Part shown: positions 16,406-43,362 of the stretch, one piece after another
How the letters are laid out: every line of letters begins with the position of its first letter
Position numbering within the stretch: the stretch's first letter is position 1
DNA from: a virus
Reading direction: 5' to 3' (one strand)
IMG/VR virus record: IMGVR_UViG_3300037423_001547
Length of the DNA: 64,000 nt
Position numbers and translations under genes: made by a program
The notes under the pieces: model-generated
The model's input: only the letters and a program-made list of their open reading frames with translations
Database searches by the model: none
Told to the model about the DNA's origin: nothing

Positions 16406-16419
16406 CCTTTGAATCGTAG
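16406..16419 (-). promoter_or_regulatory. late-operon leader motif, copy 1 (upstream of the lysis genes)
   Basis: The minus strand reads CTACGATTCAAAGG, 23 nt upstream of the uORF ATG. A second GAATCGCAG copy lies at 16443-16451. Confidence 0.5.
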
Positions 16420-16572
16420 CCTGTAGCACCCCATTGACCTATGAATCGCAGGCTATAGTTCGTTCATCCCTGGCTCAGGGGATGGCGGCGGGAGCGTGTC
16501 CGTGCGGGTCGCGCTCTCGCCGCGCCAGGCACCGGCACCCCCACCCGCACAAACCCGCACGCAGGAGCAGCC

Positions 16573-17310
16573 ATGCATGACCCGCTCACCGTCGCGTTCG
16601 AGATCCGCCGCCCCTGGCCGGAGCGCTCCACCCTCCCCGCCGCAGGCGACAAGGCCGCGCGCTGGCGCATCCGCCTCCACCACGACTGTGGCACCTGGTG
16701 CGCCGACGACCCACCTCACAAGGGCGGCGCGTTCCCCTGGTGGAAGCCCTCCAGCTACAGCGCGTTCTGGCGCCTCGCAGGCCGGGACTACTACTTCCCG
16801 CCCGTGATCACCGTGTGGCACCGGGAGCCTGGTGGGCGTGACGGCCTGACGGTGTGCAGCAGACGTGTCCAGCGTCGCGACGGTACGTGGCGGCGCACGC
16901 GCGGCTGGCGTTGGCACATTCACCATTACAAGATCCAGTTGCGGCCCTTCCAGAAGTGGCGCCGACGCCTGCTCACCCGCTGCGCCTGGTGCGGTGGCCG
17001 CTCCGTGAAGGGCGACCAAGTCAACGTCTCCCACTCCTGGAACGGCTCGCGATCCCGCTGGTGGCAGGGCGAACGTGGCTTGTTCCACCGGGACTGCTCC
17101 CCGATCGAACGGGCCCACGCCACCTGCGTGTGCACGCGGCCCGTGCTGGACCACGACACCTACGGGAGGTGCGCCAGCTGCGGCCGGTTCCGGCCCTTCG
17201 GCCTCACCGACGCCAACCTCGCCCGCGCCCGCGACCTCCAGACCATCCCGAAGGGCAGCCGCCGCGCCGACGCCGAGGAGAAGCCCGTGGCGGACGGGGA
17301 CGAGTCGTGA
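16573..17310 (+). CDS. Trp/Arg/Cys/His-rich protein of unknown function, first gene of the plus-strand cassette
   Basis: 245 aa containing VWHREPGGRD, WRWHIHHYKIQ, CAWCGG and CASCG, which looks like a metal-binding arrangement. I recognise no family. Confidence 0.65.
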   Translation: MHDPLTVAFEIRRPWPERSTLPAAGDKAARWRIRLHHDCGTWCADDPPHKGGAFPWWKPSSYSAFWRLAGRDYYFPPVITVWHREPGGRDGLTVCSRRVQRRDGTWRRTRGWRWHIHHYKIQLRPFQKWRRRLLTRCAWCGGRSVKGDQVNVSHSWNGSRSRWWQGERGLFHRDCSPIERAHATCVCTRPVLDHDTYGRCASCGRFRPFGLTDANLARARDLQTIPKGSRRADAEEKPVADGDES

Positions 17311-17410
17311 GCTACCTGTGCGCCGCGTTGGCGTTCCTGTTCGCGTTCGTCGTCCTCGCCCCACACGCCGAAGTCCACGTAGAGCCCGTACCTGCCGCGT
17401 GGAGCGGCCG

Positions 17411-17569
17411 ATGAACACCGCCGTCACCATCACCGCGATCATCGCCGCCGTCGCCCTGCTGAACAGCGGCATCACCGCCCTACGCGACATCGCCAAAGCG
17501 AAACACCAGACCGTCACTAAGCACTGCAAGACCTGCACCTGCGACAACAGCAAGGAGTCAGAGGCATGA
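17411..17569 (+). CDS. small membrane protein (52 aa)
   Basis: ATG 17411 preceded by GGAG. Has a TM segment (VTITAIIAAVALL) and a Cys-rich tail (CKTCTC). Its stop overlaps the epimerase ATG (ATGA). Confidence 0.5.
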   Translation: MNTAVTITAIIAAVALLNSGITALRDIAKAKHQTVTKHCKTCTCDNSKESEA

Positions 17570-19242
17570 AGGTTCTGATCACGGGTGGCAGCGGCTTCAT
17601 CGCCTCATGGTGCCGCCGGGAACTCCTCGCGCGAGGCCACAGCGTGCTGGTCATGGACCACCAGGACCGCCGCCAGCACCTCGCAGACGGCGAGGAGTTC
17701 TTCCTCGGCGACGTCCGTGACGCAACCGCCGTCACCGAAGCCGCCGCCCACGTCGACGGGATCATCCACCTCGCCGCCGTCCTCGGCACCCAGGAGACCA
17801 TCAGCAACCCGCGGCCCAGCGCCGAGACGAACATCCTCGGCAGCCTGAACGTCTTCGAGGCCGCCGTGCAGTACAACCTCCCTGCGGTCTATGCAGGGGT
17901 GGGGAACGCGTGGATGCGGGACCACGGAACCGGCTCCTACACGATCAGCAAGACGGCGGCCGAGGACTTCGTCCGCATGTTCAACGCCTACCGCAGCGGC
18001 CGTATCACGATCGTCCGCCCCGTCAACGCCTACGGGCCGGGGCAGAGCATCGCCGCCCCCTACGGCTGCGTCGATCCGAGCACACCCGTACTGTGCGCCG
18101 ACCTCGTCTGGAGGCCGATCTCCAGCCTGCGGGAAGGTGACGAGATCGTCGGCATCGACGAGTACGCGCCAGCGAAGAAGCAGCGAAAGCTGCGTCGGTC
18201 CACCGTGACGGGCTCGTGGGCAACGCGAAAGCATGCCGTCCGTCTCCACTTCGACGACGGCCGGTCGGTCACCTGCTCGCTCGATCACCCCTGGCTCGCA
18301 TCCTCACCGTCGGGGCAGATCCGCCAGTGGATCGAGGCGCGGAAGCTCCGCACAGGGGACCGCGTCGTGTGGGCCACGGATCAGACCTGGGACGCTGGGG
18401 ACAGCCGTTCCCACGGCTACGTCTCTGGACTCCTCGACGGCGAGGGGCATGTAGGCGGCCACGGCCCGGTATTCACGCAGAACCCCGGCCCCGTGCTGGA
18501 CGAGTACCTCTACCTCCTCAAAGAGTTCGGGTTCGAGCCCCAGACCCGGACGAAGGAGAACGGCCGGATCGTCGTGGACACGTCGGTCTCGGGACTGACT
18601 TCACGACTTCGGCTGCTGGGCGAGTTCCGCCCCGTCCGTCTCCTTGCGAGGGCCTCGCAGCTCTGGGAAGACAAGGCGCCGAACGGCGGCCGGGCGACCA
18701 TCACGGCCATCGAAGAGCTGGGCGAGACGGACCTGTGGGACGTCGAGACCACGTCGCACACCTACATCGCCAACGGGTTCGCGTCACACAACTCCAGCAA
18801 GGTCCGCAAGATCATGCCCGCCCTGACGTGCCGTGCGCTGACCGGTGCGGACATCGAGGTGTACGGCGACGGCACCCAGATCTCCGACTGCGTGTACGTC
18901 GGCGACGTGGCGCGGACGTTCGTGACCGCGTTTGAGCACACCGCCGCGCACGGGCCGACGGAGAAGCCGGTGGAGGTCGGGCCGCTCACGTCGGTCACCG
19001 TCAACGACATCGCCCGCCTGGTCGCTGAGGAGGCCGCGCGGGTGACGGGGCGGGAGCCGGTCGGGTTGAAGCATCTGCCGATGCGGCCGGGTGAGGTCCC
19101 GAACGCTGTCGTCTCCTCCGACACCAGCACGCTGCAGCAGATCGGGATGACGGCCGCGGACTTCGTGCCGCTCGACGAGGGCATCCACCACACGGTCCGC
19201 TACTACGCCGAGCAGTGGCTCCCCGGCTACCTGGCCGCCTGA
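17566..19242 (+). CDS. NAD-dependent sugar epimerase/dehydratase (extended SDR) interrupted by an intein
   Basis: Rossmann motif TGGSGFIAS and catalytic SYTISK (YxxxK). The exteins (167 + 149 aa) sum to 316 aa, the normal length for GalE/RmlB-like enzymes. Confidence 0.88.
   Translation: MKVLITGGSGFIASWCRRELLARGHSVLVMDHQDRRQHLADGEEFFLGDVRDATAVTEAAAHVDGIIHLAAVLGTQETISNPRPSAETNILGSLNVFEAAVQYNLPAVYAGVGNAWMRDHGTGSYTISKTAAEDFVRMFNAYRSGRITIVRPVNAYGPGQSIAAPYGCVDPSTPVLCADLVWRPISSLREGDEIVGIDEYAPAKKQRKLRRSTVTGSWATRKHAVRLHFDDGRSVTCSLDHPWLASSPSGQIRQWIEARKLRTGDRVVWATDQTWDAGDSRSHGYVSGLLDGEGHVGGHGPVFTQNPGPVLDEYLYLLKEFGFEPQTRTKENGRIVVDTSVSGLTSRLRLLGEFRPVRLLARASQLWEDKAPNGGRATITAIEELGETDLWDVETTSHTYIANGFASHNSSKVRKIMPALTCRALTGADIEVYGDGTQISDCVYVGDVARTFVTAFEHTAAHGPTEKPVEVGPLTSVTVNDIARLVAEEAARVTGREPVGLKHLPMRPGEVPNAVVSSDTSTLQQIGMTAADFVPLDEGIHHTVRYYAEQWLPGYLAA
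18067..18792 (+). mobile_element. intein (242 aa) with a LAGLIDADG-like motif
   Basis: Starts with Cys (CVDPSTPVLCADL). Block B is VTCSLDHPW, followed by GYVSGLLDGEGHV. It ends TSHTYIANGFASHN and is followed by Ser (+1). Confidence 0.85.
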
Positions 19243-19257
19243 ACGAAGGAGGCGGCC

Positions 19258-19860
19258 GTGGCCCGCTTGCAGATCCTGCAACTTCCCGAAGGCGCTGGCG
19301 ACGACCGGCCGCCGTTCGTCCTCGTCATCGACCAGCACCAGCCGCAGCGCTACGCACTCGGCATCGGCGAGGACGAGCCCGAGATGGTCGACGAGTTCGC
19401 CGGCGTCGCCGAGCAGATCGGGGCCCGTGTCGTGTTGGTGTTCCAAGAGACCGTCGAGATCCCTGCGAATGAGACCGCCGTGCACGCGCAACCCCTGATG
19501 CGCGTCGCGGACTTCGCGGGGCTCGACGAGATCAAGCGGCTGACCGAAGAGCGTGACGAAGCCCGCCTGTGGGCCCGACACGGCTACGAGATCGGGCAAC
19601 GCCACTGCGGCTGGTCCGACCACGGCGTCGCACCCGACTGGCTCACCGAAGGTTGGCCGCCCCACTTCGACGACTGCGAGCACTTCAAGCGTGCGGCGGA
19701 CTACGACGAGGCGCTCACCCGCGTCCGCAACCTGCCCGAGGAGCCCAAGTTCATGGATGCCCTGCACTCCGACTCCGCTGGCTACCGGCACGGCTACCGA
19801 GTGGCCATCGGCGATGCCAAGCGCGCCACCCGAGCCCGAGCCGCAGAGGACGGAGGCTGA
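19258..19860 (+). CDS. hypothetical protein (200 aa)
   Basis: Balanced composition, GGAGG upstream, embedded between the epimerase and the glycosyltransferase. Confidence 0.65.
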   Translation: MARLQILQLPEGAGDDRPPFVLVIDQHQPQRYALGIGEDEPEMVDEFAGVAEQIGARVVLVFQETVEIPANETAVHAQPLMRVADFAGLDEIKRLTEERDEARLWARHGYEIGQRHCGWSDHGVAPDWLTEGWPPHFDDCEHFKRAADYDEALTRVRNLPEEPKFMDALHSDSAGYRHGYRVAIGDAKRATRARAAEDGG

Positions 19861-19861
19861 C

Positions 19862-20875
19862 GTGCGCTGCCACTTCTGGTCCGCTGACCAGGCGGGTTCC
19901 AGTCTGTACAGGGCTACCCTGCCCGGGATGAGCTTGCAGTGGCTCGGTCACAATGTGTCCGGCGGCATGCGACTCCCCCAGGACTGGCCTGCCCTCGACG
20001 CGGTCGTTGGCTGCCGGGTGGCCAAGCGGGAGCCGTCCCTGATGTGGCACAAGCTGAAGGACGAGGGGAAGCGGCTCGTCCTCGACCTCGACGACGACTA
20101 CTTCCACATCGACCCCAGCAACGCCCACGCCCGCCAGGTCTGGGACACCGACATGCTCGGCAGGCTCGTCGCCAACATGCAGATCGCAGACCTCGTCACC
20201 TGCTGCTCCGAACCCCTCGCCGACGTCCTCCGCAACTACGCCGAAAACGTGCGAGTGATTCCGAACGGGCTGCCGGCGCAGTACCTGGGCACGCCCCGCG
20301 ACTACGAGGCCGCGGATCGTCCGCTGTTCGTGGGCTGGGCTGGCACGTCGTCCACGGTGGCGGAGTTGCCAGAGACTGTTCGCGCCCTCAACCGGATCGC
20401 CCAGTACCCGCGGCCCGGCGGCGGGGTGCAGGTCCGCATCGTTGGGATCAGCCCGGAGCACGCGATGGGCCTGGGGCTGCGCGGCCGGCGGGTCGGTGCG
20501 TTGGGTTGGGTGGAGCGGTTCGAGCACTACCTGCACGCGGTGTCCGAGTTCGACGTGTGGTGTGCGCCGTACAGGGACACGGCGTTCAACCGGGCGAAGT
20601 TCGCTACGAAGTGGCTGGAGGCCTCGGTGCTGGGGATCCCGCTGATCGCCTCCGATATCGAGCCGTACCGGCGGGTGATCCGGCATGGGGAGAACGGGTT
20701 CCTCGTGAAGTACGAGCACGAGTGGGGACGCTGGCTTAAGCGGCTCGCCGACGACCCGGAGCTGCGCCAGCGGATCGGGATGACGGCGCGGGGTGAGGCG
20801 TCGGGCAGCATCATGCAGGCGTTGCATCACCAGTGGGAGGCGGCCGTCCGCATGCCTGCGGAGGTGACCGCATGA
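19862..20875 (+). CDS. GT-B fold glycosyltransferase (GT1/GT4-like)
   Basis: GTG 19862 with GGACGGAGG upstream. The C-terminal KWLEASVLGIPLIASDIEPYRRVIRHGENGFLV matches the E-x7-E sugar-donor region of GT4-type enzymes. Confidence 0.78.
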   Translation: MRCHFWSADQAGSSLYRATLPGMSLQWLGHNVSGGMRLPQDWPALDAVVGCRVAKREPSLMWHKLKDEGKRLVLDLDDDYFHIDPSNAHARQVWDTDMLGRLVANMQIADLVTCCSEPLADVLRNYAENVRVIPNGLPAQYLGTPRDYEAADRPLFVGWAGTSSTVAELPETVRALNRIAQYPRPGGGVQVRIVGISPEHAMGLGLRGRRVGALGWVERFEHYLHAVSEFDVWCAPYRDTAFNRAKFATKWLEASVLGIPLIASDIEPYRRVIRHGENGFLVKYEHEWGRWLKRLADDPELRQRIGMTARGEASGSIMQALHHQWEAAVRMPAEVTA

Positions 20876-21117
20876 TCGCCCGCCTGACCTGGATCCCTGA
20901 CAACGGCGAGAGCGAGACCCTCACCGTAGACATCGCAGCACCCTGGCTCGAAGAGTTCCGCTCCTTGATCGGCACGCCCGAGTGGGCAAGCAGCGAAGCC
21001 GTCATGTGGATCCCCTGCCGTACCCGCGATGACCAGCCCATGACGAAGCGTCTGTTCCGGCTCGCACGCATCATCGCACTCGAACCCGTCCCAGCTGCGG
21101 AGAGGTCGACGCCTTGA
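20872..21117 (+). CDS. hypothetical protein (81 aa)
   Basis: ATGA overlap with the glycosyltransferase stop. Confidence 0.5.
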   Translation: MIARLTWIPDNGESETLTVDIAAPWLEEFRSLIGTPEWASSEAVMWIPCRTRDDQPMTKRLFRLARIIALEPVPAAERSTP

Positions 21118-21299
21118 CCGGGCCAGATCATTACCGCGAAGGCGAGCACCTCCTCGGCCGCTGCCTGGAATGGGGCCACGGCGAGCAACGCCAAGCCCTG
21201 GCCGTCGAAGCCGTCGCCCACTTTCTTGCCGCGCTCGTCGCCGCCACAGCCACCCACCAGCACCCCGAATCCGTCCGATGGCAGGAGGCCACCGAATGA
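21114..21299 (+). CDS. hypothetical protein (61 aa)
   Basis: TTG start overlapping the upstream stop. Its own stop overlaps the next ATG. Weak call. Confidence 0.4.
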   Translation: MTGPDHYREGEHLLGRCLEWGHGEQRQALAVEAVAHFLAALVAATATHQHPESVRWQEATE

Positions 21300-22165
21300 T
21301 CGACGGCAAAAGAGTCATTGCGTGGACCCCCTACGGCCGGGTCCGGACGTACAGCATCCTCTTCCAGTACCTGCGGCGGGACTTCGAGGATGGCCTCCTC
21401 GACGAGGTCTGGCTGTACATGAACACCGACCCGACCGGCCAGGAAGACGACATTGCCTACGCCCACCAGCTCGCCGAGGAGCACTCGACCTGGGTCAAGC
21501 TCAAGCACCGGCCCGAAGGCGTCCACCTCGGCCACCTGCCCAAGCAGAGGTACACCGGCCTGGCCTACCGGGAAATGATCGACCCGGACACGGTCTACCT
21601 GCGGCTCGACGATGATGTCGTCTACCTGCACGAGGACGCGATCGAGAACCTCGTGCGCGCCCGCATCGAGATGCCGGCGCCGACCGCCGTGTTCCCGATC
21701 ATCGTCAACAACGCGATCTGCTCCCACTTCCTCCAGGTCTGCGGGAAGGTCCCCATGGAGTGGGGTGAGGTCAAGCCGTACTGCATGGACCCGACCGGCT
21801 GGGCCAACGGGCCCTTCGCCGTCAAGCTGCACGAGATGCTCCTCGACCACATCGACGCCGGCACCGTCGACCAGCTCTACCTGTACCAGGACTTCCCGCT
21901 CCAGCCAGGCACGCAGTTCTCCGTGTCCTGCTTCGCGAGCCTCGGCAGCATGTACGCCGGCCTCCCGCACGGGCCCGGCATCCTCGTGCCGGATGAAGAG
22001 GAGAGCTGGCACACCATCCACCGGCCGCTCGCCACCGGCGCCCCGAACATCCTCCGCGGCGACGCGATCGTCAGCCACTGGTCGTTCTTCCCGCAGCATC
22101 CGTTCCTCAACAACACCACGCTCCTGGACCGGTACCGGGAGATCGCAGACAAGGCGGTGGCCTGA
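21296..22165 (+). CDS. putative GT-A-like glycosyltransferase (DxD-type motif)
   Basis: From ATG 21296 (ATGA overlap), 289 aa. VYLRLDDDVVYLHEDAI resembles a DxD nucleotide-sugar/metal site after an N-terminal beta-alpha region. The family is not identified. Confidence 0.55.
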   Translation: MIDGKRVIAWTPYGRVRTYSILFQYLRRDFEDGLLDEVWLYMNTDPTGQEDDIAYAHQLAEEHSTWVKLKHRPEGVHLGHLPKQRYTGLAYREMIDPDTVYLRLDDDVVYLHEDAIENLVRARIEMPAPTAVFPIIVNNAICSHFLQVCGKVPMEWGEVKPYCMDPTGWANGPFAVKLHEMLLDHIDAGTVDQLYLYQDFPLQPGTQFSVSCFASLGSMYAGLPHGPGILVPDEEESWHTIHRPLATGAPNILRGDAIVSHWSFFPQHPFLNNTTLLDRYREIADKAVA

Positions 22166-22371
22166 TGGCCCAGATCAGCGTCGAGGACGCCCTCGAAGAG
22201 TTCCGGAAGCAGTACGGCAAGGCCGTCGACGAAAACGTCCTCCTCCGCGCGCAGAACACGGCCTTGGAGCGGCGGGTGACGGAGCTGGAGCAGCAACTCG
22301 AAGGCCGCCCCGCACCCGCCGGCCCGGATCTGGCCGCGCAGCCCCCGTTCCTGGAGGGCGAGCAGGGTTAG
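22165..22371 (+). CDS. small coiled-coil protein (68 aa)
   Basis: Its start overlaps the upstream stop. Its 3' end overlaps the convergent tail-fibre stop by 4 nt. Confidence 0.5.
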   Translation: MAQISVEDALEEFRKQYGKAVDENVLLRAQNTALERRVTELEQQLEGRPAPAGPDLAAQPPFLEGEQG

Positions 22372-23435
22372 GCGATTCGGCGGATGTACATGTAGGAGCT
22401 GGTCAGCACCGATACGGCGGCCGCGTTCGACACGGACTGCGACCACTGGTAGGTGATGTTGCCTGCGCTGCCGACGGTGACGATGGACTCCTCGATGATG
22501 GCGATCGACAGGGTGTCGGCCTGGTAGATGGTGGTGGTTGTGTAGCCGTGGCCGGAGAATCGGCCTTGGGTCTGCTGACGTGAGGTGAATCCGGCGGTGA
22601 CGTCGCAGGGGCCGTGTACGAGTTTCAGGCCGGTGGTGCTGGCGGGTACGGCCCAGGCGGATTTGAAGTCGGTGTTGGCGGTGTCCGCGGTCGTCGCGAA
22701 GATCACGAAGCGGACGAGGTAGATGCCTCCGGAGACGACGCTTGCTGTCAGGTGGGGGTCGTCTGCGACGGTGGCGTTGTTGGTGCGGGCGGTGTCGGAC
22801 GGTTTGAGAACGTATCGTTCCTGCCCGATTCCGGTGGCGGAGAGGTTCCCGCCGACGGCGAGGTTCCCGGTGATGTTGGCGCTGCTTGCCACGCTGAGGT
22901 TGATGCCGACGTTGAGGCTGTCGTCGGTGGCCAGTGTGTTGGCGGCGGATCGGTAGAGGTTGACGTCGGGGGCGGTGGACCCGCCTGGCCCCCAGTTGTG
23001 GGTGCCGTCGGTGTCGATCTCGAATCGGTCCTGGGTGTCTCCGGTGACGCGGCTGGAGATCAGGTCGGTGGTGGTGGCGGCGTTGACGACGGCGAGGCTG
23101 GCGCTGCTGCCGCTGGAGTTGATGTTGATCTGTTTGCCGGACGCCAGCCGCAGCGTGGAGTTGAAGCTTGCGCTGCCGTTGGGGATTTCCACCCAGGAGC
23201 CGGACGCCGGGCTGGTGCCGTTGGAGAAGTAGGTCCGGTAGCTGGTGTCGGTCTCGAAGATGCCCTTGCCCGAGTACGGAGACGAGGGCCGCGTCGACGA
23301 CGTGCACGATGCGAAGCCGACTGCGGCGTCGACCTTGTCCCAGTTCTGGCCGATGTCCTGGCTGTAGTTGACCAGTTCGGAGCCGTCGCTCTTGCTCTTG
23401 TACAGGCCGAGGCGTGTGGTGGACGGGTCAGGCAT
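22368..23435 (-). CDS. tail fibre / receptor-binding protein
   Basis: AAAGGAGA RBS. The N-terminus MPDPSTTRLGLYKSKSDGSELVNYSQDIGQNWDKVD is typical of actinophage minor tail proteins. The rest is a Ser/Thr/Asn/Gly-rich beta-type sequence. Confidence 0.78.
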   Translation of the reverse strand: MPDPSTTRLGLYKSKSDGSELVNYSQDIGQNWDKVDAAVGFASCTSSTRPSSPYSGKGIFETDTSYRTYFSNGTSPASGSWVEIPNGSASFNSTLRLASGKQININSSGSSASLAVVNAATTTDLISSRVTGDTQDRFEIDTDGTHNWGPGGSTAPDVNLYRSAANTLATDDSLNVGINLSVASSANITGNLAVGGNLSATGIGQERYVLKPSDTARTNNATVADDPHLTASVVSGGIYLVRFVIFATTADTANTDFKSAWAVPASTTGLKLVHGPCDVTAGFTSRQQTQGRFSGHGYTTTTIYQADTLSIAIIEESIVTVGSAGNITYQWSQSVSNAAAVSVLTSSYMYIRRIA

Positions 23436-23898
23436 GCCGGGTCTCCTTTGCGGCCTTGGCGTGGCGGGTGCGTTCAGCGAGGACGGATCGGCGCATGGCG
23501 GCGATCTCCTGGCCGGATGCGCGCGGCCATTGCCGGATCACGTCCAGGGGGTCCGCGGCGCGGGTCTTCTGTGGCGGAACCACGGCCTTGGCGACTTCCT
23601 GTTTGGCGCGTTCCAGCAGTGTCAGGTGGCTGTCACGGGCGACCTGCACGCTGTCAGCAGTGAACAGCGCCGGGACTTCTCCGGGTTCGCGGAGGCGGGC
23701 GGCGAACGGTTCGTGCAGGATCATGTCGAGGGCGGTTTCCGCGTCGACGTCGTACTCGGCCATCCGCCAGTCGACGGCATTCTTCGGGAATACGTGCAGG
23801 TGAGTGCTGCCGTCGGGGCGTTCCATGACGATCATCCAGCAGGGTGTTTCCCGATCTGGTCGGTATTCCTTCACATCGGTGATGGTGTAGGTGTCCAT
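23428..23898 (-). CDS. hypothetical tail-associated protein (156 aa)
   Basis: GAGGAG RBS, located between Tal and the fibre. Confidence 0.65.
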   Translation of the reverse strand: MDTYTITDVKEYRPDRETPCWMIVMERPDGSTHLHVFPKNAVDWRMAEYDVDAETALDMILHEPFAARLREPGEVPALFTADSVQVARDSHLTLLERAKQEVAKAVVPPQKTRAADPLDVIRQWPRASGQEIAAMRRSVLAERTRHAKAAKETRHA

Positions 23899-23907
23899 GG
23901 GGTCTCC

Positions 23908-26817: not shown

Positions 26818-26820
26818 CCG

Positions 26821-33271: not shown

Positions 33272-33309
33272 GGGTGGTGCTCCTCGCTACGGGCAGGGAC
33301 AGGCGCCGG

Positions 33310-33870: not shown

Positions 33871-33871
33871 G

Positions 33872-35092: not shown

Positions 35093-35195
35093 GGCCGCCT
35101 CCTCTCCGAAGGTGGTCTCGTGCCGGCCGCCCGGTCTCCCCGAGCTGTGTGGCCCTGTTCGGTTGTTGATCGCGTTGCGGACAGCCGCAAAGCGA

Positions 35196-35971: not shown

Positions 35972-35972
35972 G

Positions 35973-36350
35973 TCAGCCCTCGCCCTCGATCACATCGCGC
36001 GGGGTGGTGGTGTCCTCCGGGTGGTGATCGACAGAGGCCGGGGCCGTCTCCACCGAGTACGTCAGCACCAGAGACAGACCGTCCGCATGCTGTTCGGCGC
36101 CATCGAAGGCCACGCCACCGTGAGGGTGCAGGCCGCGCTGGATCGCCTCGTTGACGACGCCGGCGCGGTTGGCCTCGTGCTGGTAGTCCTCGTCGTTCCA
36201 CCGTGCGGCAAGCACGACGAACTGCTTGACGAACCGCATGCCTTGCGCGCCGTCGGCGGTCCGCTCGTCGACCTCGACTTCGGGCTCACCGGCCTTCGCC
36301 GGATGCTGTCGGGCCCGCGCGCTGGCGGTGGTCTTCTTCGCTGCTGCCAC
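35973..36350 (-). CDS. hypothetical head-associated protein (125 aa)
   Basis: GTG start with a GGGAGG RBS, directly downstream of the capsid gene terminator. Confidence 0.6.
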   Translation of the reverse strand: MAAAKKTTASARARQHPAKAGEPEVEVDERTADGAQGMRFVKQFVVLAARWNDEDYQHEANRAGVVNEAIQRGLHPHGGVAFDGAEQHADGLSLVLTYSVETAPASVDHHPEDTTTPRDVIEGEG

Positions 36351-36370
36351 GGCTCGCCTCCCTGCCTGCT

Positions 36371-36403
36371 GCTGTACCGCCCGGAGCCGTCGGGCGGTAC
36401 AGC
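36371..36403 (-). terminator. 13-bp-stem hairpin just after the major capsid gene
   Basis: GCTGTACCGCCCG (36371-36383) pairs with CGGGCGGTACAGC (36391-36403). The capsid stop is at 36417. Confidence 0.7.
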
Positions 36404-36416
36404 GTCGTGAGGTGGG

Positions 36417-37331
36417 TCAGCCGACGAGGATGGACGCGCCGTTGGGGTGGCCGTAGGCGAAGCCGCGGCGGGCGCGCATCTTCAGGATCGACTCGTCCGT
36501 CAACGCGCTGAGGCCGTCGCGTCCGTCGATGAACACCGACTCCGGGCCTGAGCGGATACCGAGGAGCATCAGCTCCGGGTTGACGAACGCCATGATCGAC
36601 CGGCCGGTCGGCGCCGAGGTGGCGGTCGCGGCGAGCTTCGCACCCAGCGACCAGCGGATCGGCACGCTGAAGATGGTGTCGGGGGTTCCGGCCGTGCCCT
36701 GGATGAAGATCGGGCGGGACTGGCCGTCGAGGACACCGCGGAGGCTCTTACGGAACGACGGGTGCGCGATGGCGACCATGCTGCCGGGGTCGAAGTAGTC
36801 GCCGGACTCGACGTTGCCGATCGCGGTGGAGAACTCCGCGTAGGTCGGTGCGCCCGAGCTGGCGGCGGTGGTGATGTTCGCGCCACCGGTGTAGGAGAGG
36901 GTCGCGTCGGTGGTGTTCAGCAACTGATACAGCGACGTGAACGGGACCGTCGTACCGTTGCTGGCCGCGCTGACGGCGAGGCTCGCGTTGTCGATCATCT
37001 TGGCGTAGGACTTGCCCCAGCCCATCATCTTCGACTCGATGACGTTCGCCACCGAGTCATCGATGTCCTCCTCGGCGATACGGACGGCCTTGCCGAACTT
37101 CACCGCGGACAGGAGGACTTCGTCGTTGAGGGAGGTGTCCTCGCCGTAGGTGCCGCCCTTCGCGACGACCGCGACGTCCATGCCCGCGGTGCGGGGAACG
37201 TGCTTGGTGTCGGAGCCCATGGGGATACGGGCGGCGAGGGATTCGACGGCGGAGATCTGGGTGATGGACTGGACGACCTTGGACGTCTCCCACTCTTCGG
37301 GAATCCACGGTTCCATGGTGTTGCGGGCCAC
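36417..37331 (-). CDS. major capsid protein (HK97 fold)
   Basis: 304 aa, GTG start with an AGGAGGG RBS. Follows the scaffold. The sequence is typical of HK97-family capsids lacking a delta domain. Confidence 0.86.
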   Translation of the reverse strand: MARNTMEPWIPEEWETSKVVQSITQISAVESLAARIPMGSDTKHVPRTAGMDVAVVAKGGTYGEDTSLNDEVLLSAVKFGKAVRIAEEDIDDSVANVIESKMMGWGKSYAKMIDNASLAVSAASNGTTVPFTSLYQLLNTTDATLSYTGGANITTAASSGAPTYAEFSTAIGNVESGDYFDPGSMVAIAHPSFRKSLRGVLDGQSRPIFIQGTAGTPDTIFSVPIRWSLGAKLAATATSAPTGRSIMAFVNPELMLLGIRSGPESVFIDGRDGLSALTDESILKMRARRGFAYGHPNGASILVG

Positions 37332-37351
37332 GGTTGCCCTCCTGTGGGCGT

Positions 37352-37390
37352 CGTGATGGGGAAGCGTTTGTCGGCTCGGGCCCCATCACG
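37352..37390 (-). promoter_or_regulatory. hairpin in the 137-nt scaffold-capsid spacer
   Basis: CGTGATGGGG (37352-37361) pairs with CCCCATCACG (37381-37390). An AT-richer stretch at 37430-37468 is adjacent. Confidence 0.45.
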
Positions 37391-37468
37391 GGCGCCTACA
37401 AGCAAAGGGCGGTGGTTGGCTCCGATCACCGGAGTTATTTCACCTGATGATGAATATACCTCTGTACG

Positions 37469-38191
37469 TCAAGCCTTACCCAAGATCCGGGCCGCGTGCT
37501 GTTCCGCCGTCGACTTCGGCTTGTCCGGGGCCGCCGGGCGAGGCGCACCCGTCGGCCGCGCCTTCGGCTTCGGCCGTTCCTGCGGCAGCAGCTCCGGGTA
37601 GTCCGACTTCACCCGGTCCACCTCCGCCTCGACACCGAGGAGGTCGCCGTCGTCGTCGACGCTGATGGCATCCCAGTCGATCAGCTTCATCAGCCGGTCC
37701 GGGCTCGTGAACCCCGCTTCGGCCAGCGCCGCGCGGACACCGGACTTCTTCATCGGCTCCCGGAACCGGCGCTCCCCCTCCTCACGGGCCTCGCGTAGCG
37801 CCTTCTCGTGCTCGGTCTCGTCGCCGCGGGCCTTCTCCTCCAACTCCTTGTTGCGGAGCCGGTGCCGCTTCGCGTCGTCGTTGGCCTTCTTCAAAGCGGC
37901 CTGCGTCCGCGCCCACTCGTCCTTCGACGGCGGCTTGAAGTCGTCCCCGGTGTCGTCGGTCTTCTTGGCCGGAGGCTTCGGCTTCGGCGTCTCGTCGGGC
38001 TCCGGCTCGTAGTCCGGGCCAGGCTCGGTCTCCGGCTCCTCCTCGTCGGAGACCTCGACGTCCGGCTCGTCGTCGGTTTCGGCGCCGCCGGCGATGACGT
38101 GGATCGGGCGGCCGTCTGCGCGGTAGCCGAGGATCGTGCCCGGGGGCAGGCTGATGCCTTCAGCCTGCTCAGTGTTGGGGTGGATGCCCAT
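37469..38191 (-). CDS. scaffolding protein
   Basis: 240 aa, highly charged (Glu/Asp/Lys/Pro) and coiled-coil. Lies between the MuF-like and capsid genes. Confidence 0.75.
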   Translation of the reverse strand: MGIHPNTEQAEGISLPPGTILGYRADGRPIHVIAGGAETDDEPDVEVSDEEEPETEPGPDYEPEPDETPKPKPPAKKTDDTGDDFKPPSKDEWARTQAALKKANDDAKRHRLRNKELEEKARGDETEHEKALREAREEGERRFREPMKKSGVRAALAEAGFTSPDRLMKLIDWDAISVDDDGDLLGVEAEVDRVKSDYPELLPQERPKPKARPTGAPRPAAPDKPKSTAEQHAARILGKA

Positions 38192-38241
38192 GGTGTTCTC
38201 CCATCACGGGGTTGGCGACGCCCATCGTCGGGCGCCGGGGT

Positions 38242-39258
38242 TCATGCGGCGGCCGGGAAGCGGCCGGTCCTGATCGCGGTGCGGGCGCGGGCCTCGACCG
38301 CGGGCAGCAGATCGTCGACGGTGCGCAACAACTCGCGGGCGGCGCGCAGCCGTACCGCACGGGACTCGGACGGGCGGGCGGTGCCGTAAGCGAGGGAACG
38401 GTGTGCCTCCCGCTGCAGTGCCAGCGGGAACGGCACGCCCTCGGTGGTCCACGCGTCGTCCCAGGGGACTGCTCTGCACCTGCAGTGCGCGTGCAAGGGC
38501 GGCCCGTCCACGCCCGGACGGTGCGCACCACGCTGCCGGGGATCCCAGGACAAGCCGCCCGGGAACGGCTCGTCCTTCTTGACGACGCGGCCGGTGTACG
38601 CGCTGCAACGAACGCAGGCATCCGCTTCCGATACCCACACCCTGAGCGGAGCCGCCGCCCGCACCACCGCGTCCAGGCCCTCGTGCACGGCGGTGTTGAT
38701 GACCCACGCGATATGCGCACGCACCGCAGGCAGCGCGGCGCGGGCTGCGCCGAGCCCGGCCAGCATGTGCGACCAGCGCGACACCCGGTCCGGATGCAGC
38801 AAGAACAGTGCACGGTCGCGGCGCTCGGTCACCATCTCCCGGATCCGGCGCGCCTCGTCCCGCAGCGAACGGCTGACGGACGGGACACGCGGTTCCCGGC
38901 GCCGTCGGCCCGACGCGGCTCGAACGAACTCGGTGCCCTGCCGCACCCCCATCGCGAGCGCCGGGCCGAGCCCGTCGGCGAGTGCGGCGGGGGCCCGGTC
39001 GGCGATGCCGGCGAGGAGTCGCTGGACGGCTGCCTTCGCGGTGGCAAGGATCCGGCGCAGCGCGTCAGCCGAGGCAGCCGCATGGTGGGGTCCGCCGAAC
39101 GCGCGGGTCCACGCATCGAGGATGCGACGGATCAGCTCCTCGAACGCCCGGTCGGCGCCGCGGAGCGCACGGGCGGCGATCCCGTTCTCCAGGTCAACGA
39201 CCTCGCCCGTGTGCTCGTCCTGCACCAGGTTCATGAGGCGGTCGCTGGAGTACGGCAT
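38242..39258 (-). CDS. head morphogenesis protein (MuF / SPP1 gp7 family)
   Basis: 338 aa with CVRCSAYTGRVV...PPLHAHCRCRAVPW, the conserved MuF-like C-terminal motif. ATGA overlap with the portal stop. Confidence 0.8.
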   Translation of the reverse strand: MPYSSDRLMNLVQDEHTGEVVDLENGIAARALRGADRAFEELIRRILDAWTRAFGGPHHAAASADALRRILATAKAAVQRLLAGIADRAPAALADGLGPALAMGVRQGTEFVRAASGRRRREPRVPSVSRSLRDEARRIREMVTERRDRALFLLHPDRVSRWSHMLAGLGAARAALPAVRAHIAWVINTAVHEGLDAVVRAAAPLRVWVSEADACVRCSAYTGRVVKKDEPFPGGLSWDPRQRGAHRPGVDGPPLHAHCRCRAVPWDDAWTTEGVPFPLALQREAHRSLAYGTARPSESRAVRLRAARELLRTVDDLLPAVEARARTAIRTGRFPAAA

Positions 39259-40784
39259 CAGCCCTCCTCCTGCACCTGCGCGAGGGCTTCGAGGTCGTCG
39301 ATCGCCCCAGACAGCAGTGCGGTGACCTGCTCGCCGGTGATGACCCCGAGCGCGGCCGCAGACCCCAGCTTCTGAGCGGAGTCGGCCAGGGAGGCGAGGA
39401 CATCGACACGGCGCTGCAACTCGGCATCATCGGTACCCGCGAGCCACGCGTCGACCTGCTCGGCCCGGTAGCCGGCCTCCATGAGGGCCTGCTTACGCGG
39501 CACACCAGCATCGATCTTCGCCTTGACGGTCTGCCAGCCTTCGACGCTCGACACGGACCGGGCCGGCACCCAGTCGACGGTTACGACCGGGTTCTCGACG
39601 CCGAGGCGGCGCAGCGCGAACACGAACGCCTCATGCAAGGATGCGCCGTAGCTGGTCTGCCGGTTCTCCACCTTCGAGATGAACGGGCCGTCCTCCTCGC
39701 GGTAGGACTCGCCCGAGCGCTGGCTGGAGGACTGGGGGTCGAACATGCGCAGCGGGGTGTCGGTGATCTGTGCCATCGCCCGAACGTTGAAGTTGATCGG
39801 GTCGAGGAACACGTCAGGTTGGGCGGCGTCGAACTGCCCGACCTGCTTGAAGCCGCGTAGCAGCAGCATCTCGCCCGGCCCGGCTTTCAGGCTGCTGTCG
39901 TCACCGGAGTCGGAGGGGCCGGTGCCGTTCTCGTTGAGGGGCCAATCGTCGTCGTCGAAGTCGCCGGGTTCCAGATCGCTGGTGTCGGTGTTGGCGGTCT
40001 CGGTGAGCGCGTACCGCTGCGGGAAACCCTGGTAGTCGACGGTACCCATGTGGGTGGCCTGGAGCTTGGTGATGGCGTTCTGCGGGCCGTAGGCGCCGTA
40101 ATGCTCAGGACATCCGTAAGGGCGATCGTTCCTGAAGTGGAAGACGGGCTGCTCGCCCCAGTCATGGTCGATGACCCACGACTCAGGGTCGTCCGGGTCT
40201 GCGGGCCAATGGTTCCAGTCGGCCGGCTTGTCGCCTCGGGAGTTCTCTCCGGTGGTCCAGCGTTCGGTGCGGTCGTCGTACAGCAGCTCGGCCCGCTGGT
40301 ATCTGCCCTCACACCATCGCTTGATCGTGAAGTCTTTGCGGCGCGGGTTGTCCTCGGCGTAGATGACGCGGACGGTCTGCGGGGAGTTGTAGAACATCTC
40401 GACCCGCAGCACGTTGCCCTGCTCGTCCTCGACAGGCAGGACCATCAGGTAGGCGTCGCCGTACTCGCCGGCCCGGCGGAACAGGTCGGGGAGTTCGAGG
40501 TTGAGCTGGTTGTCCTTCCAGATTTTGGAGATGAGGGTGTTCGTGGCTGGGTCGGGGCTGGTGATCGAGGCGACCTTGAGCCGGTTGGTGACCGCGTTGA
40601 CGGGGGTTTTGGCGAAGTTGAGGTCGAAGTCGATGTGGTGGGCGCGGAGGGCGCGGCGGATCCGGGTCGACGTGAAGACTTCGGGGACTTTGCCGTCGTA
40701 GTAGATCTGGGCCTGGTCGTAGCCGGGGCGGGCTTCCTTCAGCTCTTCGATTCCGAGCATGAGGTCGGCGCGTGACTCGTCCAC
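39258..40784 (-). CDS. portal protein
   Basis: About 508 aa in an SPP1 gp6-like position and size. GTG 40784 has GGTGGGAGG upstream. The track start, GTG 40847, would bury the conserved leader motif inside the CDS. Confidence 0.9.
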   Translation of the reverse strand: MDESRADLMLGIEELKEARPGYDQAQIYYDGKVPEVFTSTRIRRALRAHHIDFDLNFAKTPVNAVTNRLKVASITSPDPATNTLISKIWKDNQLNLELPDLFRRAGEYGDAYLMVLPVEDEQGNVLRVEMFYNSPQTVRVIYAEDNPRRKDFTIKRWCEGRYQRAELLYDDRTERWTTGENSRGDKPADWNHWPADPDDPESWVIDHDWGEQPVFHFRNDRPYGCPEHYGAYGPQNAITKLQATHMGTVDYQGFPQRYALTETANTDTSDLEPGDFDDDDWPLNENGTGPSDSGDDSSLKAGPGEMLLLRGFKQVGQFDAAQPDVFLDPINFNVRAMAQITDTPLRMFDPQSSSQRSGESYREEDGPFISKVENRQTSYGASLHEAFVFALRRLGVENPVVTVDWVPARSVSSVEGWQTVKAKIDAGVPRKQALMEAGYRAEQVDAWLAGTDDAELQRRVDVLASLADSAQKLGSAAALGVITGEQVTALLSGAIDDLEALAQVQEEG

Positions 40785-40806
40785 CAGTGCGACCTCCCAC
40801 CCTTGA

Positions 40807-40821
40807 CCTTTGAATCGAAGG
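40807..40821 (-). promoter_or_regulatory. late-operon leader motif, copy 2 (upstream of portal)
   Basis: The minus strand reads CCTTCGATTCAAAGG, 22 nt upstream of GTG 40784. An inverted GAATCGAAG copy lies at 40746-40754. Confidence 0.5.
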
Positions 40822-40886
40822 ATAGACGGTCGATCGAGTCGCGTCACACCTCACCACAGGTAGCCCCTACCTTCGAAAGCGAGGCG

Positions 40887-42494
40887 CTACGCATACGTGG
40901 CGGCCCGAGCCGACGGCGCCGCCTTCTTCACCGGCGGCATGAATCGCCGGACGGCCGACCCCACCGCATCGACCATGTCGTCGTTCGGGCCCTTGGGGAA
41001 CGTGCACATCTGCTGCTCCAACTCCGGCAGCCTGCGCGCGTGAAACACCCGGCCACGCTGATACAGCCCGAGCAACCCCTCAGCCCGCGTGAACTTCGGC
41101 TCGCTCTGGTGAACCGTCTTCACCCTCACCGGCAAGCTGTGGAGGATCGCCTGCCACGCGTCGCCGCCCTGGTTGACCTCGATCAGGACCAGTCCGATCC
41201 GCGGGAACTCATCCAGCAACGCCAGCACCCGCTCCCTCAGCTCCGGGCCCGGGCGGACCTTAAGCGCCATCGCCGCGTGCACGGTGCACCGCTTATGCTG
41301 CGCCGACCACGACACCACGGCCAGCCCGGTGAAGTCGGACGCCCTCTTGGCGGTGGTGGCCGGGTCGATGCTGAGCATCATGTGGGTAATCGGGTCGGCG
41401 CCGGTGACCGGGTCGACGCGGTCTTCGATGTTCAGGGCGCCGTTGAGGCGTTCCAGTGCGGTCGGCGGTGTCGGGTAGCGGAAGTCGTCCGGTGTCCACA
41501 GTGCGCCGTCCGCGGCCAGCGGATCGTTCGCCATGTTCTTCGCATAAGACCTGGTGTGCCGTATCTCGGTCAGGTACCCGATGGGCCACTTCGCCGGCCA
41601 CATGGACCGCTCCGTGCCGTCGGGGCGTTCCACGATCGGCAGGCTGTGGTGCGCGCGGATCCCCTCGTCCTGGATCCACTGGGCGACGTTGACACCCTTC
41701 GCGGCCCGGACCAGCTGGTGGATGATGCTGCCCGGCATGGTGACGGTCCCGCAGATCGCGACGCGGGCGTAGATGTTCAGCGGCAGGATTGCGTCCAGCA
41801 GGGTGGTGAGTCGCTTCGAGGCGAGGGCGGCGGAGTAGCTGCTCTCGTCGGGCTCCACATCGTCGCAGAGAAGCAGGTCAGGTCGCTTCTCCTCCACCTT
41901 CATACCGAGGGCACTCGAATCGATGCCGTGAGCTGCGAAGATGAACCCGCTCTTGGCGATGTACATGCTGTGCGTGTCCGCGATGTTCTGCCCGGACGGC
42001 CGTTTCGCCGCGGTGCATAGGTCTGGGAAGTCACGGCGCAGCAAGGCGTTACCGTCCAGCTCCCGCTTGAACGTGCTGAGATGCCGTTCCGCCTGGGTGG
42101 CGGCCGATGCGAATGCTGCTGCGAACTTCACGTGCCCGTGCGCGGCAGCCCACATCGGCAGGATCAGGAACCACCACGTCGTCTTGCCGGTGTTGCGGGG
42201 CGCGATCCAGGCGTCGCGCTCCTCGGCCGGCCCGGTGGGCGGTCGTACCCAGCGGCGGCCGGCCCTGCACCAGTCGAGGTGGGCGTCACCGAAGGTGATC
42301 CGACCTTCCTCGTCTTTGAGATGGTGCCTGAGGTAAACGAGGGCGAACAGCAGGGGATCGAGCCGGGTGAGGGTGCGCCGGCCTTCGGGGTCGGCGAGGA
42401 GCCGCGCGTCGAACTGGGCGAGGTAGGCGTCCAGGTTGAAGGTCTCTGCGTCGAGGCCTTCGAGGTAGCCGACCGTGCGGGTTGCGGTCGTCAC
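40887..42494 (-). CDS. terL: terminase large subunit
   Basis: Walker A-like IAPRNTGKTTW, an ATPase domain and a C-terminal nuclease domain. The start is uncertain: GTG 42494 follows the upstream stop at 42499, and the track ORF extends to 42596. Confidence 0.92.
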   Translation of the reverse strand: MTTATRTVGYLEGLDAETFNLDAYLAQFDARLLADPEGRRTLTRLDPLLFALVYLRHHLKDEEGRITFGDAHLDWCRAGRRWVRPPTGPAEERDAWIAPRNTGKTTWWFLILPMWAAAHGHVKFAAAFASAATQAERHLSTFKRELDGNALLRRDFPDLCTAAKRPSGQNIADTHSMYIAKSGFIFAAHGIDSSALGMKVEEKRPDLLLCDDVEPDESSYSAALASKRLTTLLDAILPLNIYARVAICGTVTMPGSIIHQLVRAAKGVNVAQWIQDEGIRAHHSLPIVERPDGTERSMWPAKWPIGYLTEIRHTRSYAKNMANDPLAADGALWTPDDFRYPTPPTALERLNGALNIEDRVDPVTGADPITHMMLSIDPATTAKRASDFTGLAVVSWSAQHKRCTVHAAMALKVRPGPELRERVLALLDEFPRIGLVLIEVNQGGDAWQAILHSLPVRVKTVHQSEPKFTRAEGLLGLYQRGRVFHARRLPELEQQMCTFPKGPNDDMVDAVGSAVRRFMPPVKKAAPSARAATYA

Positions 42495-42498
42495 CGGG

Positions 42499-42738
42499 TC
42501 AGCCCTCGTCGTCGCGGCTGCTGACGTAGCCGCCGTTCTCGATCTCCAAGGCGGCCGTGAGCATGCCGAGCGTGGTGATCCAGTCGAGGGATTCACTGGC
42601 CGCCTTGACGAGGCTGACGACCCCGTCAGCCTTTACGATCTTCAGGATGACGTGGGCGTCGGTCGGCATGTCACCCTCGTCCAGGTCGACGGTGACGCCG
42701 AGCGCGTCGAGGAGCTGCCCGATCTTCTGGTCAGGCAT
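42499..42738 (-). CDS. hypothetical protein (79 aa) between terS and terL
   Basis: GGAGG RBS and acidic composition. Its start overlaps the terS stop region. Confidence 0.55.
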   Translation of the reverse strand: MPDQKIGQLLDALGVTVDLDEGDMPTDAHVILKIVKADGVVSLVKAASESLDWITTLGMLTAALEIENGGYVSSRDDEG

Positions 42739-43279
42739 TGGCGCCTCCGTCGAGGATCTGCTGCTCTTCCAACTGGGTGCGGGCCTTGGCCTCGCGGAGC
42801 ATCTCCTGCAGCTCCACGTCCTGCTGCGTGACCTGGTGGACGGTGGCGTCGACCTTGACGGGCTGATTGAGGCCCATCATGATCCGGAAGCTGTCGAGGG
42901 TCTGCCGGGCTTCGCGGAGCGCGGCAAGCACTGGCGCGTGGTCGCGGAGGGGCTTGCCGTCCTCGTCGCAGATGACCTTGCCGTGGGAGACCATCACATG
43001 GTCCGCTTCGGCGATCTCGATGGCCTTGGCGTAGGCGTACTCCAGGCGGCTGGCGTGGACTCGGATGGCCTCTTGGCCGGCGTCTTGGACGACGGCTTGG
43101 ACGGCGCGTTGGACGCTGCGCATGGCGGTCCATTTACTGACGCCGAGCTGTTCGCCGATCTCCCTGTAGTTGAGGCCCTGGCTGAAGAGGCGCGCTGCTT
43201 GGGCGTCTTGTTCTGCGGTCTCGATGGTGCGGGTGTACTTGCCTTTGCCGTTGCGGGCGTCCTGGTTGGGGTTGGCCAT
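42731..43279 (-). CDS. terS: terminase small subunit (HTH-containing)
   Basis: 182 aa with QGLNYREIGEQLGVSKWTAMRSVQRA, a sigma-70 region-4-like HTH. GAGGAGG RBS. First gene of the packaging block. Confidence 0.7.
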   Translation of the reverse strand: MANPNQDARNGKGKYTRTIETAEQDAQAARLFSQGLNYREIGEQLGVSKWTAMRSVQRAVQAVVQDAGQEAIRVHASRLEYAYAKAIEIAEADHVMVSHGKVICDEDGKPLRDHAPVLAALREARQTLDSFRIMMGLNQPVKVDATVHQVTQQDVELQEMLREAKARTQLEEQQILDGGANA

Positions 43280-43303
43280 GGTGGGTGCCTCCTCAAGCCT
43301 GTA

Positions 43304-43318
43304 CCTTTGAATCGTAGG
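43304..43318 (-). promoter_or_regulatory. late-operon leader motif, copy 3 (upstream of terS)
   Basis: The minus strand reads CCTACGATTCAAAGG, 24 nt upstream of ATG 43279. An inverted GAATCGAAG copy lies at 43336-43344. Confidence 0.5.
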
Positions 43319-43362
43319 TCAGAGTGCCATCTCATCTTCGATTCCAGCGTGAGGCGGGTTTG

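Follow-up and report, generated by a model that had tools for sequence, protein, structure and literature searches.

Phased pairs of a conserved 15-bp dyad mark the late units of a temperate Streptomyces phage lineage and may act as operators at late promoters

The viral genome in IMG/VR record IMGVR_UViG_3300037423_001547 carries a 15-bp dyad ahead of three late units, those of terS, the portal gene and the lysis genes, and this element has been retained in related phages and prophages of Streptomyces. The stretch analysed is 64,000 nt long; it is referred to here as the window, and all coordinates follow its numbering. There are six dyads in the window, at three loci, arranged as phased pairs. 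We consider the chances somewhat better than even that these are operator pairs for a dimeric, oligomerising DNA-binding protein and that they overlap late promoters, a reading which is built from the comparison of sequences.

An initial annotation of this DNA had reported an 11-mer, CCTTTGAATCG (CGATTCAAAGG on the minus strand), upstream of three late starts, and its occurrence beyond chance could be confirmed: exact copies are present at 16406-16416, 40807-40817 and 43304-43314, both strands are otherwise empty, and these three copies compare with 0.02 expected, none of 100 dinucleotide shuffles giving three. The 11-mer is the core of a conserved unit of 15 bp, CCTNNGAWTCNNAGG, which at one mismatch or fewer has four matches in the window (0.50 expected; 0 of 100 shuffles reach four), the fourth being CCTGCGATTCATAGG at 16438-16452; with two mismatches there is no enrichment (11 matches, 10 expected). 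This unit is a 7-1-7 pseudo-palindrome, CCT-W-Y-GA-T-TC-R-W-AGG, with the half-site CCT(A/T)(C/T)GA; the minus-strand readings of the individual copies are collected in Table 1. The initial annotation had read C(C/T)T(A/T) before CGATTC at every copy, which does not hold for site A, where the sequence is GCTA.

Among the relatives, variants of the dyad are confined to CCTWYGAWTCRWAGG, and these include the perfect palindromes CCTGCGATTCGCAGG, CCTTTGATTCAAAGG and CCTACGAATCGTAGG; the centre base is flipped in some relatives (GAATC), and the centre is always GANTC. To obtain an unbiased profile, sites were picked by their position relative to the large terminase gene (TerL), independently of any match to the motif. 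The resulting position-anchored profile reads T(-2)-n-n-C-C-T-(A/T)-C-G-A-T-T-C-(A/G)-A-A-G-G-T(+16), its positions being mostly invariant when distinct sites are compared, 33 at terS and 30 at the portal gene, and 19 nt can be called near-invariant, T(-2)nnCCTWCGATTCRAAGGT. The conserved half-sites, the 7-1-7 arrangement and the perfect palindromes among the variants are the features of a dyad-symmetric operator.

The relatives in question comprise IMG/VR contigs of 64-82 kb and prophages found in ten species of Streptomyces, among them prophages of Streptomyces sp. NRRL S-1022, S. naphthomycinicus TML10, S. spinosisporus 7R016, S. kaempferi CGMCC 4.7020 and S. capoamus JCM 4253; complete genomes of this clade measure about 65-70 kb. 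Among 37 loci anchored on TerL (64-90% identical), the dyad is found upstream of terS in 34, at the position equivalent to the proximal terS dyad of the window and with positions 1-3, 6, 7, 9, 12 and 14-16 invariant, and 33 have it after TerL; dyads occur in every one of the ten close prophages of Streptomyces, and the lysis-type pair is present in each of the six relatives reached via a tail protein as well as in L061 and L164. The early regions flanking the dyads are mosaic and not conserved. We could not identify a dyad in 10 kb of early region from ten relatives, pattern scans gave no further copies in the window, and in the window none is near the integrase gene, near the XRE genes or in the early region around 47.8 kb where transcription diverges, unlike the operators of lambda CI/Cro-type repressors, which are found at early promoters beside the repressor gene; the motif thus marks late units only, a point for which the initial annotation had suggested a genome-wide scan. 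There is no dyad in sister clades with TerL 43-53% identical, nor in the phages Yara, KimJongPhill, Isperia and phiC31. The nearest isolated phages, Streptomyces Yara, Wentworth and KimJongPhill and some Microbacterium phages, are only 45-49% identical in TerL, and megablast of the window against phage genomes gave no matches. Relatives that were anchored on the endolysin, and have only the endolysin in common with the window, are without the dyad; the element moves with the structural module and not with the lysin gene. Because the dyads are confined to the three late units in the window and in the relatives, these units make up the regulon, probably together with the genes divergent from two of them.

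A separate observation concerns Streptomyces sp. NPDC004610 (L227), which has an extra dyad, CCTGCGATTCCAAGG, at 15059-15073, about 3.4 kb downstream of the portal site and with weak partners at -31 and +64; it may represent a fourth regulated unit in some genomes.

The dyads are also paired at a fixed helical phase. In the window the partners are 32 bp apart, centre to centre, at the lysis unit, 31 bp at terS and 63 bp at the portal gene; compared with the N-pattern, the lysis partner has no mismatches and the portal partner two, and the terS partner is weak (11/15). In the relatives, the best secondary site is at +/-31 or 32 for 29 of 38 terS-type sites, at -31/-32 for 8 of 8 lysis-type sites and at -63/-64 for 21 of 38 portal-type sites. 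Three turns of B-DNA correspond to 31.5 bp and six to 63 bp. The 16 TerL-portal gaps that were aligned consist of a distal dyad, a 48-nt spacer of constant length without sequence conservation, a proximal dyad, a Shine-Dalgarno sequence (SD) and the start codon; the proximal dyad is contained in the invariant string TATCCTTCGA(T/A)TCAAAGG, and TATCCTTCGA is identical in 16 of the 16 relatives. Upstream of terS, relatives have cGAATC(G/A)AAGcc at the same -31 offset; in the type-2 terS regions the weaker partner is 31 bp downstream, versus upstream elsewhere. Partner distances of 31/32 or 63/64 bp are therefore kept although the sequence in between changes, and such spacings would allow cooperative binding, as at the multiple operators of lambda CI/Cro-type repressors.

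The initial annotation had also pointed to a second copy of part of the motif near each site. At 16443-16451 and 43336-43344 these copies are the cores of the distal lysis dyad and of the weak terS dyad, respectively, whereas the supposed portal copy (40745-40753) lies inside the portal open reading frame (ORF), in codons LGIEEL, and is not conserved in relatives; the true partner is the dyad 63 bp upstream at 40870-40884, which begins 3 nt past the TerL stop codon. The distances to the start codons had been given correctly for the window, namely 24 nt to the terS ATG at 43279, 22 nt to the GTG at 40784 and 23 nt to an ATG at 16382 that opens a short upstream ORF (uORF), and a GGAGG-type SD does precede each start (Table 1). 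This register is not fixed, however, as the distance ranges from 18 to 50 nt among the relatives: 18-20 nt at the portal gene, 24-26 nt at terS of type 1 and 39-50 nt at terS of type 2.

Given these observations, we propose that a dimeric DNA-binding protein would recognise each dyad, and that two bound dimers would touch on the same face of the helix, as neighbours where the dyads are 31-32 bp apart and, where they are 63-64 bp apart, with the DNA between them forming a small loop or wrap. At terS and the lysis unit the proximal dyad would cover the -10-like TACGAT and the predicted transcription start, and occupancy of the operators would gate RNA polymerase at the late promoters and at divergent promoters in the same gaps. 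Negative gating, in which the -10 and the start are occluded until relief late in infection, is the more likely sign of regulation because the proximal dyad overlies both the -10-like hexamer and the predicted start. A dual role as repressor and activator would be allowed, since the distal dyads would then fall near -40 at terS and the lysis unit and near -71 at the portal gene, where activators classically bind.

A promoter is required inside the terS and lysis gaps because each of these units faces a divergently transcribed gene: terS and a gene for a small basic protein have a common control region of 83 bp, the lysis unit and the gene for a 245-aa protein a common intergenic region of about 190 bp, and in relatives opposite-strand genes are likewise found upstream of the lysis unit. 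TACGAT, a match to TANNNT, occurs in 32 of 33 terS and 8 of 8 lysis proximal dyads of the relatives, and a start about 7 nt past it would give leaders of some 20-25 nt. On the sense strand, 64 of the 71 proximal sites have T as their centre base; the bias implies a constraint that depends on orientation and fits an overlapping -10, for which TACGAT and not TACGAA would be needed. At the portal gene the dyads read TTCGAT, without the A at hexamer position 2 that is the key base of a -10, and alternative hexamers, TATCCT or TACCTT, are found 5-6 nt upstream.

Several points weigh against operator pairs for a late regulator. Temperate phages mostly control their late genes positively, and a repressor dedicated to these genes would be out of the ordinary. 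There is strong asymmetry in the proximal sites, with CCTAC/CCTTC on the left and TCAAAGG followed by a conserved T at +16 on the right; at terS and the lysis unit the left half is fixed as CCTAC/GCTAC and the mirror positions 11-12 are variable (AA, GA, CA, GT). A pure dimer site needs no such asymmetry, and the promoter itself may account for part of the conservation. The promoter overlap itself is read from a single feature, the TANNNT match: a consensus scan for a -35 element (TTGACN, 16-18 bp upstream) found none at the three window sites, and the anchored alignment has no conserved hexamer at the -35 position. Many actinobacterial promoters are without a -35, however, and a missing -35 does not exclude a promoter. 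The sites counted in the relatives are phylogenetically related and thus non-independent, and each of the DNA-binding candidates in the window fails a test of co-occurrence or of homology, as set out below.

The strongest competing explanation, though one we think unlikely, is that the 15-19 nt are nothing other than an extended late promoter comprising -10, discriminator and start, read by the host HrdB holoenzyme or by an alternative phage-directed sigma-like factor, as in T4, whose late promoters have a -10 only; on this view the second copies would be further promoters, tandem or divergent, and not operator partners. The need for a promoter in two of the gaps, the fit of TACGAT to TANNNT and the conserved orientation (the centre T, and the asymmetric T(-2) and T(+16)) are all as this explanation would have them, and so is the distal terS dyad, which on the plus strand reads CTTCGATTC toward the divergent gene, 18 nt ahead of its ATG. 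What it leaves unexplained is the dyad symmetry with its perfect palindromes and a partner spacing that is locked across diverged genomes. The portal copies and the missing -35 also speak against it, as does the finding that neither a sigma-like or RNA polymerase gene nor a homologue of phiC31 gp12 appears in the window scans. Of the proposal of the initial annotation that the motif may be a -10 element, the fit of TACGAT at terS and the lysis unit, the two sites in gaps that need a promoter, is supported; a bare -10 hexamer accounts neither for the near-invariance of 19 nt nor for the symmetric, paired arrangement. The further possibility raised there, a binding site for a late regulator, is the one that the comparative data favour.

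We regard it as very improbable that the element acts at the level of RNA, as a processing site in the leader, a ribosome standby site or translational enhancer (AAAGG is complementary to the 3' tail of 16S rRNA), or a hairpin that sequesters the SD. The motif does stand upstream of strong SDs, CCUUC of its left arm can pair with the portal SD GGGAG in 16 of 16 relatives, and some intergenic regions fold well; but in the 16 portal gaps RNAalifold predicted five pairs (CCUUC with the SD) at a consensus energy of only -4 kcal/mol, and none of these pairs shows a compensatory change. Single-sequence folding gave z-scores from -3.9 to +0.95, with positive values in 4 of 12 relatives, and there is no Rfam match at gathering thresholds. 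Inspection by eye of the variable positions in paired dyads showed no co-variation of the kind expected for pairing between sites, and a hairpin within a single dyad is ruled out because its loop would be 1 nt. The variable distance to the start codon argues in the same direction, and an RNA element gives no reason for the helical phasing of the partners. We also looked for a terminator hairpin conserved between TerL and the portal gene; strong hairpins are present there in some relatives and absent from others.

That the dyads are signals for packaging (TerS sites, cosB- or pac-like, beside terS as in lambda) or junctions for module exchange is likewise very improbable, for although one pair is directly upstream of terS and the sites are at borders between conserved and mosaic modules, the dyad is invariant while the N-terminal DNA-binding domain of TerS is of two unrelated types, the same dyads recur 2.5 kb away at the portal gene and 27 kb away at the lysis genes, and phased pairs with an orientation fixed relative to the genes are unexpected of recombination junctions.

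Several candidates for the binder of the proposed operators were examined. TerS was rejected on account of its two unrelated N-terminal helix-turn-helix (HTH) types, next to which the dyad is identical. For the 394-aa XRE regulator with an HTH_31 domain (9745-10929), all 18 homologues on viral contigs fall outside the dyad-bearing clade, and the 245-aa Cys/His-rich protein is present in only three of six relatives. Autoregulation by the small basic gene divergent from terS would have to involve three unrelated families (hhalign probability at most 1.2%). A protein with a LexA DNA-binding domain has homologues in two loci without dyads (L204, L216), and the geometry of the actinobacterial SOS box differs from that of the dyad. 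No sigma factor or RNA polymerase was found among the window proteins scanned with Pfam, and no AsnC-family protein among about 65 of them; ORF clustering of the 5-10 kb upstream of terS in 30 relatives revealed no universal family. A methylation switch, suggested by the GANTC centre and a PF01555 methylase in the window, was likewise dismissed, methylase homologues being present in only two contigs of the clade among the best 80 matches; the specificity of this methylase cannot be inferred. GANTC is depleted over the whole window (130 sites against 283 expected from dinucleotides and 158 from a third-order Markov model), and TCNGA and CANTG have similar deficits, so that codon usage and not restriction avoidance is the cause.

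An invariant operator in a mosaic lineage implies that the regulator is encoded elsewhere in these genomes or is a conserved host protein. As no phage-encoded candidate co-varies with the site, a factor of the Streptomyces host is a live possibility. By analogy of geometry, we tentatively raise the idea, to which we assign a low probability, that the late switch could be held by the host, with an oligomeric, Lrp/AsnC-like DNA-binding protein of Streptomyces gating transcription of the genes for packaging, portal and lysis; an operator that does not vary amid mosaic phage regulatory modules would thereby be accounted for.

The comparison with relatives also bears on the start of the portal gene, which the initial annotation had moved from 40847 to 40784, and it supports that change. 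In the relatives the gene starts with TTG, 18-20 nt past the dyad and behind GGGAGG, giving the N-terminus L(E/D)DE..ADLM.GIEEL, and in several of them there are in-frame stops 12-60 nt upstream of this start, within or beside the dyad. The equivalent codon in the window is CTG, which is followed by the GTG at 40784; the longest ORF, from 40847, would put both dyads inside coding sequence, and the JGI caller has the start at ATG 40760. On these alignments GTG 40784 is the best-supported start, and the revision explains why gene callers disagree here.

Table 1. Dyads, genes and associated features of the window; dyad sequences are those of the minus strand.
Feature	Position	Strand	Remarks
Proximal terS dyad	43304..43318	-	CCTACGATTCAAAGG; holds -10-like TACGAT (43311-43316)
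Distal terS dyad (weak)	43335..43349	-	CGCTGGAATCGAAGA
terS Shine-Dalgarno sequence	43288..43294	-	GAGGAGG
terS	42731..43279	-	182 aa; first gene of late operon; weak Pfam HTH_23 match; aligns with relatives; JGI-called
Gene divergent from terS	43363..43569	+	68-aa very basic protein; GC at third codon positions 0.93; JGI-called
Large terminase gene (TerL)	40887..42596	-	
Distal portal dyad	40870..40884	-	CCTCGCTTTCGAAGG
Proximal portal dyad	40807..40821	-	CCTTCGATTCAAAGG; conserved CTAT ahead (TATCCT 40821-40826)
Portal gene	39258..40784	-	start revised to GTG 40784; Pfam SPP1_portal; SD GGGAGG 40793-40798
Proximal lysis dyad	16406..16420	-	GCTACGATTCAAAGG; includes TACGAT
Distal lysis dyad	16438..16452	-	CCTGCGATTCATAGG
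uORF	16332..16382	-	16 codons; SD GGGAGG 16388-16393; stop runs TGA-G-ATG into endolysin start 16330
Endolysin gene	15386..16330	-	Amidase_2
Holin-like gene	15086-15352	-	downstream of endolysin
Gene divergent from lysis unit	16573..17310	+	245-aa Cys/His/Trp-rich protein; first gene of glycosylation block (to 22371)
Late operon	43279 to ~22.4 kb	-	terS via TerL, portal, capsid and tape measure to tail genes
Serine integrase gene	5317-6957		
XRE-type regulator genes	3896-4126 and 9745-10929		

The window is about 68% GC. From its gene content, as judged by GC at codon positions and by Pfam and PHROG scans, and from its relatives among Streptomyces prophages, it is most of the genome, nearly complete, of a temperate Streptomyces siphophage. 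Besides the genes in Table 1 it encodes RecT-like, DnaB-like, FtsK-like and methylase proteins; tRNA genes, Rfam matches and long internal repeats were not found in it.

The same terS gene is present on a 55-kb JGI soil-metagenome contig. TerS is modular: its C-terminal two thirds are conserved across the clade, but two unrelated types of HTH domain are found at the N-terminus, and the alignments thus suggest a swap of packaging specificity. The slot divergent from terS is always filled, in the window and in the relatives L001-L032 and L223-L232, by a gene for an extremely basic protein of 55-75 aa, and the proteins fall into three families without detectable homology, a DUF7218-type in most relatives, a DUF6582-type and that of the window itself, as though the gene for some late function had undergone non-orthologous replacement.

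At the lysis unit the proximal dyad of the relatives reads GCTACGATTCNNAGG (L253-L258, L061) or TCTACGATTCAAAGG (L164). Relatives are without the uORF and their lysin starts directly, about 24 nt past the dyad; in the window the uORF could be a device for translational coupling or a remnant. Homologues of the 245-aa protein are encoded in L253, L254 and L258, their genes being divergent from and adjoining the lysis dyads in L253 and L258 and about 6.7 kb away in L254. The glycosyltransferase block on the plus strand that begins with this gene, presumably for glycosylation of the virion, includes a gene for an NAD-dependent epimerase/dehydratase (17566-19242, +) that is split by an intein with a LAGLIDADG homing-endonuclease domain. 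Downstream of the lysis genes and of extra structural genes lies the gene for the LexA-type protein mentioned above (12015-12233, minus strand; 72 aa; PF01726, E = 5e-18), which is made up of the DNA-binding domain alone, without a peptidase domain, and has homologues in other actinophage contigs.

In the early region, an 8-bp inverted repeat, GACAAGGT-N15-ACCTTGTC (47830-47837 and 47853-47860), is located in the divergent gap between the gene at 47442-47798 (minus strand) and an HTH gene at 47864-48175 (plus strand); it is unlike the late dyad in sequence and is probably an early-region operator. The HTH protein and a ribbon-helix-helix-like protein of the relatives (2596-2793 in L004, and nine other loci), which is encoded upstream of terS on the opposite strand, have in common only the C-terminal tail DLPERPxSSEEK. 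The pair looks like a swap of DNA-binding domains on a conserved tail.

We found no description of this sequence or of the concept in the literature searched; the element is a variant of a type known from actinophages, short dyad repeats close to gene starts, from which it differs in its restriction to late genes, phased pairing, sequence and host. Microbacterium phages of Cluster EG have an 18-bp inverted repeat, GATCAACCNNGGTTGATC, typically 14-22 bp upstream of starts and in 8-10 copies per genome, and Cluster O mycobacteriophages a 17-bp dyad repeat, TGTTCGGNNNCCGAACA, in more than 30 copies of which one third are inside genes; both kinds are concentrated in the right end, among genes that are not structural, and their function and binder have not been described (PMC7302621, PMC4351075). 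The likeness lies in short, well-conserved dyad repeats in intergenic gaps near starts, kept where the surrounding DNA has diverged. The dyads described here, in contrast, are of unrelated sequence and of 7-1-7 geometry, occur in a temperate phage of Streptomyces hosts at three loci that are all late, matching neither the multiplicity nor the non-structural location of the EG and O repeats, and come in pairs 31/32 or 63/64 bp apart with conserved orientation.

The SAS/ESAS of Cluster K is an asymmetric 13-mer that contains the ribosome-binding site, lies 3-7 bp from the start of non-structural genes only, and has been proposed as the site of an unknown host or phage factor (PMC3203893). Like the dyad it is a motif tied to gene starts and conserved across sub-clusters before different genes; the dyad, however, has a separate SD between it and the start codon, which is 18-50 nt away, and it precedes late genes only. 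Stoperators are asymmetric 13-14-mers bound by a monomeric repressor, with about 20-30 sites genome-wide in addition to an early-promoter operator. These Cluster A sites, for a repressor of the L5 gp71 type, are described as asymmetric and numerous, located outside the immunity region, including inside late operons, and oriented with transcription (PMC9283540, PMC6550527). They provide a precedent for negative control directly on late units, whereas the sites reported here are symmetric, paired, restricted to three loci and absent from the early and immunity region.

In Gram-positive temperate phages with activators of the RinA/ArpU/Ltr family, a tightly regulated, activator-dependent late promoter just upstream of terS drives packaging and lysis genes, and activators of the RinA type are encoded immediately upstream of terS (PMC3152322). 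A regulated promoter at terS would be common to both systems; here, though, one of three unrelated types of small basic protein is encoded in that slot, scans of the window gave no ArpU/RinA or sigma-like gene, and the site is a dyad overlapping a -10-like hexamer and not an upstream activator box. Regulators of the Lrp/AsnC (feast/famine) type and other oligomeric repressors bind 15-bp 7-1-7 dyads about three helical turns apart as a cooperative oligomer that wraps or loops the DNA. The likeness to them is one of geometry only, the dyad sequence being unlike the E. coli Lrp consensus YAGHAWATTWTDCTR.

Control of late genes in actinobacteriophages is essentially uncharacterised, and start-associated and dyad repeats have been catalogued there without a known mechanism. 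The element described here is an unusually tractable case, with only three loci per genome, a phased architecture that predicts specific phenotypes for spacing mutants, and conservation in prophages of named, culturable Streptomyces strains. Should the switch be held by the host, virion production would be tied to a physiological signal of the host and not to a phage-encoded late activator. Identification of the binder would yield a compact, tightly gated promoter and operator cassette for Streptomyces engineering, and it would give the first defined late switch, whether phage- or host-held, for a family of temperate Streptomyces phages.

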